64,000 nucleotides of DNA from Candidatus Saccharimonadales bacterium. Its GTDB lineage: Bacteria; Patescibacteriota; Saccharimonadia; Saccharimonadales; UBA4665. The first letter of the stretch is position 1. Each line of letters opens with the position of its first letter. The notes under the pieces were generated by a model. The model was given only the letters and a program-made list of their open reading frames with translations, was not told the DNA's origin and made no database searches. Of the stretch, positions 7,682-8,850 are shown in pieces. The position numbers and the translations under genes are program-made. Location of the stretch: the NCBI GenBank assembly GCA_036383395.1, contig DASVOI010000014.1, positions 329-64,328 on the forward strand. Direction: 5' to 3'.

Positions 7682-8551
7682 ATGGCGTCACGGCAGCAAA
7701 TTAAACGGCGTATCGGCTCTGTGCGCAACACGCGCCAGATTACCAAGGCTATGCAGCTGGTTGCCGCCAGCAAGCTGCGCCACGCCCAAGAAGCGGTGGT
7801 GCGCCCGCGCGACTACGCGCAGCTGGCCCGCGAGATTTTGACTCGTCTGCGTCAACTCGGCGCCGGCGAAAGCGAATTCAAGCTGTTTGCCGAACGGCCG
7901 GTGAAGCGCCGGCTTATTATCGCCATGACGAGTGACCTGGGACTGGCCGGCGCTTATGACGCCAACGTTGTCCGACAGCTGATCACCGAAGCCCAAGCCG
8001 ACCACGGCAAGGGTGTAAAGACCGCTGTAGTAGCCATTGGCCGCAAGGCCGCGCAGGCTGCCAGCCACATCGCCGGCCTCGAAGTGGAAGCCGTCTACAC
8101 CAAGATGCCCGACAAGCCCACTGCCGACGATCTGCGTCCGATTTTGAGCAGCATCGTGGCCAAGTTCGCCGACGGCGACGTCGACCAAGTCGACATCATC
8201 TTCACCAAGTTTGTTTCGAGCATTAGCCAGCAAGTCCAGCTGCAGCGTTTGCTGCCGGCCGGCTTTGAAGAGGCCGAGCTAAACGACGAGCTGGCGCACG
8301 CCGACGTCGAACCCGACGTGGGCAGCCTGCTGCGCGCCGCCGCGTTGCGCCTGCTGGAAGCCCAGATCTACCAGGCCTTTTTAGAGGCCGTGGCCTCTGA
8401 GCAGTCCATGCGTATGCTGGCCATGAAGAACGCCACTGACAACGCCAGCGACCTCATCGAGGACCTGACGCTGGAGTACAACAACGCCCGCCAGGCCGCG
8501 ATTACCCAAGAGCTGGCCGAAATTACCGGTGGTGCGGAGGCGTTGAAATGA
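7682..8551 (+). CDS. atpG: ATP synthase F1 subunit gamma
   Basis: ITKAMQLVAASK and MKNATDNA...YNNARQAAITQELAEI. Confidence 0.99.
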   Translation: MASRQQIKRRIGSVRNTRQITKAMQLVAASKLRHAQEAVVRPRDYAQLAREILTRLRQLGAGESEFKLFAERPVKRRLIIAMTSDLGLAGAYDANVVRQLITEAQADHGKGVKTAVVAIGRKAAQAASHIAGLEVEAVYTKMPDKPTADDLRPILSSIVAKFADGDVDQVDIIFTKFVSSISQQVQLQRLLPAGFEEAELNDELAHADVEPDVGSLLRAAALRLLEAQIYQAFLEAVASEQSMRMLAMKNATDNASDLIEDLTLEYNNARQAAITQELAEITGGAEALK

Positions 8552-8850
8552 GCATCGGTGAAGATCTGACTAGCATGTCGAAAGACCCGTACAGCTGGGG
8601 AGCTTGGTTTGCCGCCCACGACGACGTGTTCGGCGACCGCCGCCCCGAATCTTGGATGTCCGATCTCGAGCTGATGGACCGCGGCCCAACGCTTGGTCCG
8701 GATGATGCTACTCGCCAAGCGCATTTTGAAAACATGGTGCCTGGCCCAGCCAATGCGCTAGTGGCCGCGAGTTATGTGACCTGGCGCAGCATGCAGGTCG
8801 GGCGCGGAACACCGAACATCGTCGTCATGAATCAAGGAAATGGAGAATAA
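8548..8850 (+). CDS. Orphan ORF inserted between atpG and atpD
   Basis: 100-aa ORF fills the gap exactly; ATGA overlap with the atpG stop; its TAA ends 1 nt before the atpD ATG. Confidence 0.7.

Follow-up and report, generated by a model that had tools for sequence, protein, structure and literature searches.

The 64,000-nucleotide stretch of DNA analysed here (the window; positions 329 to 64,328 of the forward strand of contig DASVOI010000014.1, assembly GCA_036383395.1) comes from a soil member of the Saccharibacteria, a Candidatus Saccharimonadales bacterium, and carries a complete F-type ATP-synthase operon on its + strand, on which all the features of the operon described below lie. Our subject is a small gene inside this operon. 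Between atpG, which encodes the F1 gamma subunit (289 residues, 7682-8551, PF00231, E 1.8e-86), and atpD, which encodes the F1 beta subunit (8852..10246, PF00006, PF02874 and PF22919), lies an open reading frame (ORF) of 100 codons, here called orfX, at 8548..8850. The atpG gene ends in AAA-TGA, and the ATGA at 8548-8551 serves both genes, the orfX start codon occupying 8548-8550 and the atpG stop codon 8549-8551. A Shine-Dalgarno-like GGAGG (8536..8540) sits within the 3' end of atpG, 7 nucleotides (nt) 5' of the orfX ATG. At its other end orfX stops with TAA (8848-8850), which leaves a single base (8851) before the atpD ATG at 8852, and its final codons contain the GGAG Shine-Dalgarno sequence of atpD (8842..8845), 6 nt before that ATG. 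An alternative in-frame atpD ATG at 8840, which would overlap orfX, is also possible; the start at 8852 is preferred because the start ATGGCAACA is conserved in relatives, and the Shine-Dalgarno context of atpD is conserved in relatives likewise. The relatives used throughout are Candidatus Saccharimonadales or Saccharibacteria, mostly metagenome-assembled genomes (MAGs) from soil, with 28 in a first set and 78 species in a larger survey. By start/stop overlap or nearness and by Shine-Dalgarno spacing, both ends of orfX have the geometry of termination and reinitiation. The initial annotation of this locus had described an ORF that starts in the atpG ATGA, ends 1 nt before atpD and holds the atpD Shine-Dalgarno sequence, and the sequence and the list of ORFs bear this out.

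At the local base composition, 100 codons would stay open from the orfX ATG with a probability of about 0.025 in this genome alone; for the frames leading from the atpG stop in 26 genomes of relatives, chance alone would give such openness with a joint probability of about 1e-55. Of the six frames, that of orfX scores highest for coding, at 0.25 per codon, the mean for 100-codon chunks of long genes being 0.45 (standard deviation, sd, 0.22). Its codon usage lies 4.3 sd nearer to the coding usage of the genome than that of a random open frame of equal base composition, and is weaker per codon than that of atpG, atpC or atpE. The G+C content of orfX is 0.59, as compared with 0.58 for the genome, and composition runs smoothly across the junctions. 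The predicted product has an isoelectric point (pI) of 4.54, 14 Asp+Glu against 7 Lys+Arg, 4 Trp and a grand average of hydropathy (GRAVY) of -0.5, so that its earlier description as Trp/Asp-rich was a fair one. From this single sequence AlphaFold2 predicts six helices at low confidence (pLDDT 60, pTM 0.49), and a Foldseek search of this low-confidence model against the PDB returned nothing at E below 8; neither result bears on function. Coding-like by frame, codon and charge statistics, orfX is, as judged from sequence, a genuine coding gene; such ORFs deserve gene calls in annotation, but not the names of ATP-synthase subunits. At the RNA level the folding energy of the gap is unremarkable (z -0.7). 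Within orfX there is an imperfect long-range inverted repeat (8617-8645 / 8800-8829, 74-90% complementary), which pairs in the minimum-free-energy fold.

In a word-indexed search of 5.8 billion (5.8e9) clustered proteins, an exhaustive HMMER search of 1.84 billion representatives and a search of metagenome contigs, orfX matched only itself. Six-frame searches gave no homolog in 60 related genomes and no accepted homolog in all 23 species of the genus; three weak matches in the genus (E 0.02-0.08 per genome) are mutually unrelated and were rejected as chance, the best of them falling in a transglycosylase-like region, a family whose motif orfX does not carry. The genome itself holds no second copy or homolog of orfX at either the protein or the DNA level. 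No family was found for orfX in Pfam (E <= 0.1), NCBIfam (E <= 1), the anti-phage defence collection PADLOC (E <= 1) or PHROGs, no PDB sequence matched it at E <= 10, and Rfam gave no match in the atpG-atpD gap region at E <= 1. Profile tests against the known accessory, inhibitor and assembly families of the ATP synthase (AtpI/AtpZ, AtpR, IF1, zeta/DUF1476, Atp11 and Atp12) were negative, and the low-confidence model had no fold match at E <= 0.001; since the profiles are negative, orfX is placed outside every known family of these three kinds. The orphan status proposed earlier thus holds in all searches: across the 60 relatives, the 23-species genus and the global protein libraries there is no ortholog of orfX at the same position, and the nearest species hold unrelated ORFs there.

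How fast the content of this position changes can be seen in the 11-species clade to which the window belongs in a tree of gamma and beta, where the atpG-atpD gaps measure 300, 223, 49, 61, 954, 364, 491, 184, 606, 37 and 58 nt. The closest species have an atpG that is 90% identical to that of the window, at a synonymous divergence (dS) of 0.57-0.81. Between the orfX gap and the gap of the closest species, blastn, tblastx and shuffle-calibrated global alignment (z ~0) found no similarity beyond the atpD Shine-Dalgarno sequence, and in a three-way alignment the stop codon of atpG and the ATG of atpD mark the exact points at which homology is lost and regained; the two closest species hold unrelated inserts at the orfX site. 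A more diverged pair of species (dS of at least 1.1) has slot ORFs that are still 43% identical, with a z of 10.5. As the gap alignment falls to z ~0 at dS 0.6-0.8 but retains z 10.5 in the more diverged pair, the insert appears to have been replaced, or to have arisen anew, since the window parted from its nearest sampled relative, and divergence rather than replacement was rejected for the window and its nearest species on these same figures. No mobility, integrase or phage family was found at orfX. The locus shows what defines a replacement-type hypervariable islet, namely flanks that are conserved around a content that is not homologous between close relatives. The initial annotation had suggested that orfX is a new accessory or assembly factor; as a conserved factor this is not supported, because there are no homologs, an outcome that the annotation had itself named as speaking against its proposal, and because the two closest species carry unrelated inserts.

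Across the first set of relatives, the gap between atpG and atpD spans 13 to 954 nt. In all gaps of at least 184 nt, the ORF that comes first has an ATG in overlap or in contact with the atpG stop, and most such slot ORFs end a few nt at most from the start of atpD, often as TAATG. Where a gap holds two ORFs, these mostly overlap each other by ATGA (one pair is 21 nt apart), and coupled mini-ORFs of 12-21 codons span four short gaps. In the larger survey the gap reaches at least 100 nt in 44 of 78 species, with same-strand ORFs covering at least 80% of it in 38 of the 44; 34 of the 78 have no slot ORF or merely a mini-ORF. The statement that atpG and atpD are normally adjacent is true of most bacteria and of most other Patescibacteria, whereas in this order a gap of that size separates them in those 44 species. 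GGAGG occurs in the atpG tail of 30 of the 35 species with a coupled slot ORF, as against 16 of 34 without one (Fisher p 9e-4, a value that ignores kinship).

The 48 slot ORFs of at least 45 residues fall into 44 unrelated sequence clusters, and the only shared slot families are a 23S-rRNA-intervening-sequence four-helix-bundle protein, present in three species, and two two-member pairs. All-against-all BLAST, phmmer and shuffle-calibrated Smith-Waterman comparisons detected three small families and one cross-slot link only, with orfX in none of them. The four-helix-bundle protein, which is basic and 128-138 residues long (PF05635, E 9.6e-36), is a recurrent tenant of the gamma/beta slot (L015:2367-2783, which equals L110; L146; L155). 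Some of the longer slot ORFs, those of L008, L010, L012 and L014 (164-217 residues) and the L093/L107 pair, resemble each other in length and in a strand-like motif, '..(L/I)VVN..'; only one pair among the ORFs with this motif clusters by phmmer, and they may form a family at the level of fold.

In the first set, each of the 28 slot ORFs exceeds in acidity what would be expected of an open frame with its own base composition (Stouffer Z -16, again ignoring kinship). Asp and Glu together make up 15.4% of their residues versus 7.4% expected, and Arg 6.4% versus 10.9% expected; the acidity z of orfX alone is -3.2. The pI is below 6 in 25 of the 28, compared with 37% of the small predicted proteins in this genome (p 1.6e-8), a background that rests on crude ORF calls of our own. 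Acidity recurs in 40 of the 48 slot ORFs of the larger set, and off-frame ORFs in the same gap DNA are basic, with pI values of 9-12. Given this departure from expectation, the slot ORFs are not neutral translated spacers, and the nature of their products would seem to be under some selection, either because harmless products are favoured or because the products share a kind of role.

Gaps of this sort are found at the other two F1 junctions as well. Between atpA and atpG the gap exceeds 100 nt in 16 of 28 relatives and is mostly occupied by coupled ORFs, and between atpD and atpC it exceeds 100 nt in 14 of 19. The five Fo/stalk junctions (I/B, B/E, E/F, F/H and H/A) nearly all measure -25 to +85 nt (20 relatives). 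The beta/epsilon slot of the window holds two ORFs, orfY (80 residues, 10246..10488), whose start overlaps the atpD stop by 1 nt, and the acidic orfZ (233 residues, 10491..11192), whose end shares an ATGA with the start of atpC at 11189. In the random-open-frame test of codon usage applied to orfX, orfY scores a z of 3.5 and orfZ of 7.5. A Pfam search gave no family for orfY, and orfZ can be aligned with the beta/epsilon ORF of the closest species only in its C-terminal part (E 8e-6). All five junctions around orfX, orfY and orfZ are tight, whereas in this genome about 21% of neighbouring genes on the same strand are joined as closely, the background being once more our crude ORF calls.

Further observations concern these junctions. 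In L003, L014 and L021 a simple ORF scan found atpA-atpG gaps of 330-620 nt with no gap-filling same-strand ORF of at least 30 residues; these gaps may be non-coding or may contain genes that start in an unusual way. The first gamma/beta slot ORF of one relative, G005 (L010:2364-2738), is weakly homologous (E 1e-5 to 2e-4) to the beta/epsilon slot ORF of another, G002, and this ORF of G002 forms a cluster with the beta/epsilon ORF of G005 itself (loci compared: L010:2364-2738 with L034:2529-2996 and L037:3422-3712). On the sequences compared, this suggests a duplication between slots.

A second, divergent F1-like cluster in the genome of the window (G000, contig C50:130-4985) has no junction ORFs, and all its genes are joined by 4-nt overlaps. 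It comprises a 250-residue ORF followed by alpha-like (879-2507), gamma-like (2504-3364, below the TIGR01146 cut-off), beta-like (3361-4668) and epsilon-like (4665-4985) genes. A second, sub-threshold gamma/beta pair is also present in many other Patescibacteria. Outside the order, atpG and atpD are adjacent in most Patescibacteria, and the idea that occupied gaps are a general trait of that group was rejected: 12 long gaps from its other lineages are AT-rich and have stops in all frames. In one genus of another patescibacterial family (G127 C6, G102 C1), a distance of about 420 kb separates atpG from atpD on one contig, so that the atp operon is split.

Taken together, we consider it likely, with a probability of roughly 0.6, that orfX is a young, predicted-translated and species-specific passenger gene in a replacement-type hypervariable gamma/beta slot of the Saccharimonadales atp operon. 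The slot is filled by unrelated small acidic genes, or is empty, in related species, which makes a young passenger likelier than a conserved part of the enzyme. A passenger exploiting a strong operon was the other alternative raised by the initial annotation, and it is the better supported of the two. Ribosomes that finish atpG would re-initiate on orfX, and those that finish orfX would be delivered to the atpD start. By such a relay from atpG through orfX to atpD, the insert would be translated from end to end while the expression of beta and epsilon continued without interruption. Because the content of the slot would be replaced far faster than the flanking genes diverge, orfX is presumably young, or recently acquired from an unsampled source, rather than a conserved subunit or assembly factor. 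Across the clade, selection may then see to it that the frame stays open, that both ends remain tightly coupled and that the product is acidic and soluble, and the function of the orfX protein, if it has any, is probably lineage-specific and weak.

Several observations weigh against a passenger. The shared acidity, the occupied slots throughout the order, their restriction to F1 junctions and the homology between a gamma/beta and a beta/epsilon ORF hint at a common role, for which a pure passenger would have no need. The sole alignable slot pair shows some constraint at the protein level (nonsynonymous divergence, dN, 0.5 versus a flanking dS of at least 1.1; dN/dS, omega, ~0.4). Neither a target-site duplication nor terminal, direct or inverted repeats flank orfX, and no donor sequence was found. 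Two ideas that might have supported the relay failed. The ribosome-binding region of atpD is predicted to be open, less structured than shuffles (z +1.8), and therefore coupling is not obviously required for initiation at atpD; an unmasking of atpD by coupling through RNA structure is not supported. Nor is Rho polarity supported as a reason for the open frames, as no Rho homolog was detected in this 93%-complete genome, the only TIGR00767 match being atpD itself. As for the earlier claim that coupling implies co-translation with the F1 subunits, the coupling geometry is real, but by itself it implies no role in F1, and atpD, with an initiation region predicted to be unstructured, could initiate on its own.

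In a rival reading, orfX would be a species-specific, fast-evolving partner of F1, perhaps a brake on hydrolysis or a helper in beta assembly, made beside and along with the subunits to which it binds, and the junction ORFs of the clade would be functional analogues with a rapid turnover or diversification. We regard this as unlikely, though likelier than the other rivals. Such a partner would fit the confinement of the ORFs to the three F1 junctions and their absence from the Fo/stalk junctions, the acidic, soluble character of 40 of 48 unrelated slot ORFs, the cross-slot homology in one species, the omega of the alignable pair and the helical single-sequence model, with its pTM of 0.49. Moreover, inhibitors of F1 arose independently many times from unrelated sequences, as with IF1, the zeta subunit, AtpTheta, the C-terminal domain of epsilon and the mycobacterial alpha extension. 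However, the closest species, at a dS of only 0.6-0.8, carry unrelated sequences, 34 of 78 species have an empty slot or only a mini-ORF, orfX matches no known accessory or inhibitor family and no fold, and the second F1-like cluster of the same genome has no inserts. In a broader form of this idea, the three F1 junctions would be a rack of co-translated slots, in which new acidic proteins are born or captured and then recruited as species-specific F1 partners, orfX among them and synthesised alongside beta; we hold this to be doubtful. Partners arising in this way could act, for example, as brakes on ATP hydrolysis or as shields for the exposed F1 head of an episymbiont.

The peptide might instead be irrelevant, orfX being a mere translated spacer in which selection acts on translation as such, for a ribosome relay or for protection of the mRNA between atpG and atpD. 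The coupled mini-ORFs across short gaps in several species point this way, as does the fact that nothing is conserved across species except the openness of the frame and its coupling at either end, with GGAGG and the overlapping start co-varying with the presence of an ORF. Even so, this is improbable, since the Asp, Glu and Arg contents given above are far from those of a neutral open frame, codon usage is coding-like, atpD has no predicted structure to be relieved and the genome no Rho to cause polarity, and other Patescibacteria tolerate long non-coding gaps at this place. It is very improbable that orfX came into the operon as mobile cargo, for example as a selfish gene, a defence gene or one derived from a phage. 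The slot does take recognisable cargo, in that the PF05635 protein occurs there in one species and its relatives in two more, but orfX matches nothing in PHROGs, PADLOC, Pfam or NCBIfam, has no flanking direct or inverted repeats and no integrase or mobility gene, and is host-like in G+C content and codon usage. That orfX is open merely by chance, in a spacer that does not code, or is an artefact of assembly, is scarcely credible: a G+C content of 58% does raise the odds of long chance ORFs, and the sequence does come from a metagenome assembly, but the probabilities of openness (0.025 alone and ~1e-55 across relatives), the exact fit between the atpG stop and the atpD start, the coding-like codon and charge statistics, the smooth composition over the junctions and the same architecture in dozens of independent assemblies all argue for a gene.

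The slot resembles the replacement-type flexible islets, hypervariable loci between core genes whose content is swapped among close relatives, in its conserved flanks, its unrelated content and the break of homology at the flank borders. It differs from them in lying inside a co-transcribed core operon and not between operons, and its tenants in the Saccharimonadales are single small acidic ORFs joined stop-to-start to both neighbours, with no mobility genes or repeats found. The joints themselves are of a familiar kind. Translational coupling by ATGA or TAATG is known from the trp and atp operons of Escherichia coli, and orfX shares with it the ATGA overlap, the Shine-Dalgarno sequence in the upstream gene and a next start 1 nt past the stop, whereas the coupled element here is a non-conserved orphan between subunit genes that are adjacent in most bacteria.

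Mitochondrial IF1, alphaproteobacterial zeta (DUF1476) and cyanobacterial AtpTheta are small, soluble, largely helical and unrelated between lineages, in which they are like the orfX model. They have no sequence match to orfX, however; each is conserved throughout its own clade, and most are encoded elsewhere than at the F1 junctions, while orfX occurs in one species only. The accessory genes of atp operons (atpI or 'gene 1', PF09527 and PF03899, and atpZ, atpQ and atpR of the N-type ATPase operons) are, like orfX, non-subunit genes co-transcribed with ATP-synthase genes; their products are membrane proteins, conserved and encoded at the operon's 5' end, whereas the orfX product is predicted to be soluble, acidic and unconserved and is encoded between F1 genes. 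With orphan or de novo genes and the 'morons' of phages, orfX has in common its shortness, its lack of homologs, a codon usage below that of core genes and predicted expression by way of a transcription and translation unit that is already in place. In contrast to a moron, it brings neither a promoter nor a terminator. In the syntenic gaps of the closest species, blastn, tblastx and global alignment found no DNA similarity to orfX that would reveal an ancestral non-coding homolog, so that it may have arisen de novo or have been acquired.

In bacteria the F1Fo operon ranks with the best-conserved gene arrays, and in one order of the candidate phyla radiation (CPR) three of its junctions hold differing, tightly coupled acidic orphans. 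We found no published description of junction ORFs in the atp operons of Saccharibacteria. The slots may offer a natural series of very young genes that would be expressed from the outset, which would be useful for the study of gene birth and of operon tolerance. If it is true that any junction protein binds F1, this would indicate a previously unrecognised, fast-evolving layer of ATP-synthase regulation in episymbiotic bacteria.

The other genes of the operon come in the following order. An atpI-like gene (3828-4100, PF09527, E 3e-10) is followed by atpB (4100-4888), atpE (4920-5141), atpF (5164-5700), atpH (ending at 6097) and atpA (6119-7675), which precedes atpG, and atpC, for the F1 epsilon subunit (11189..11617, PF02823, E 1.4e-20), is the final gene. 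A sigma-70-like promoter match, by consensus only, precedes the atpI-like gene at 3650..3677; no other promoter-like site was predicted on this strand upstream of or along the operon before 12054. Directly 3' of atpC there is a predicted intrinsic-terminator-like hairpin with a T-tract (11642..11658), the sole terminator-like site on the strand 3' of the F1 genes, and no internal promoter or terminator was predicted between 3650 and 11642. As the only promoter-like site thus lies at 3650 and the terminator-like hairpin at 11642, orfX, orfY and orfZ are assigned, together with all the atp genes, to one predicted transcription unit.

Lastly, three loci of the survey carry taxonomic labels foreign to the group, L094 (DATIJU010000014.1) being labelled Bacillota, L100 (DATLCF010000002.1) Nevskiaceae and L128 (CAZHZI010000115.1) Conexibacteraceae. 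Their atpG genes are of the Saccharibacteria type, 55-86% identical to that of the window, and the three MAGs are probably mislabelled or contaminated.

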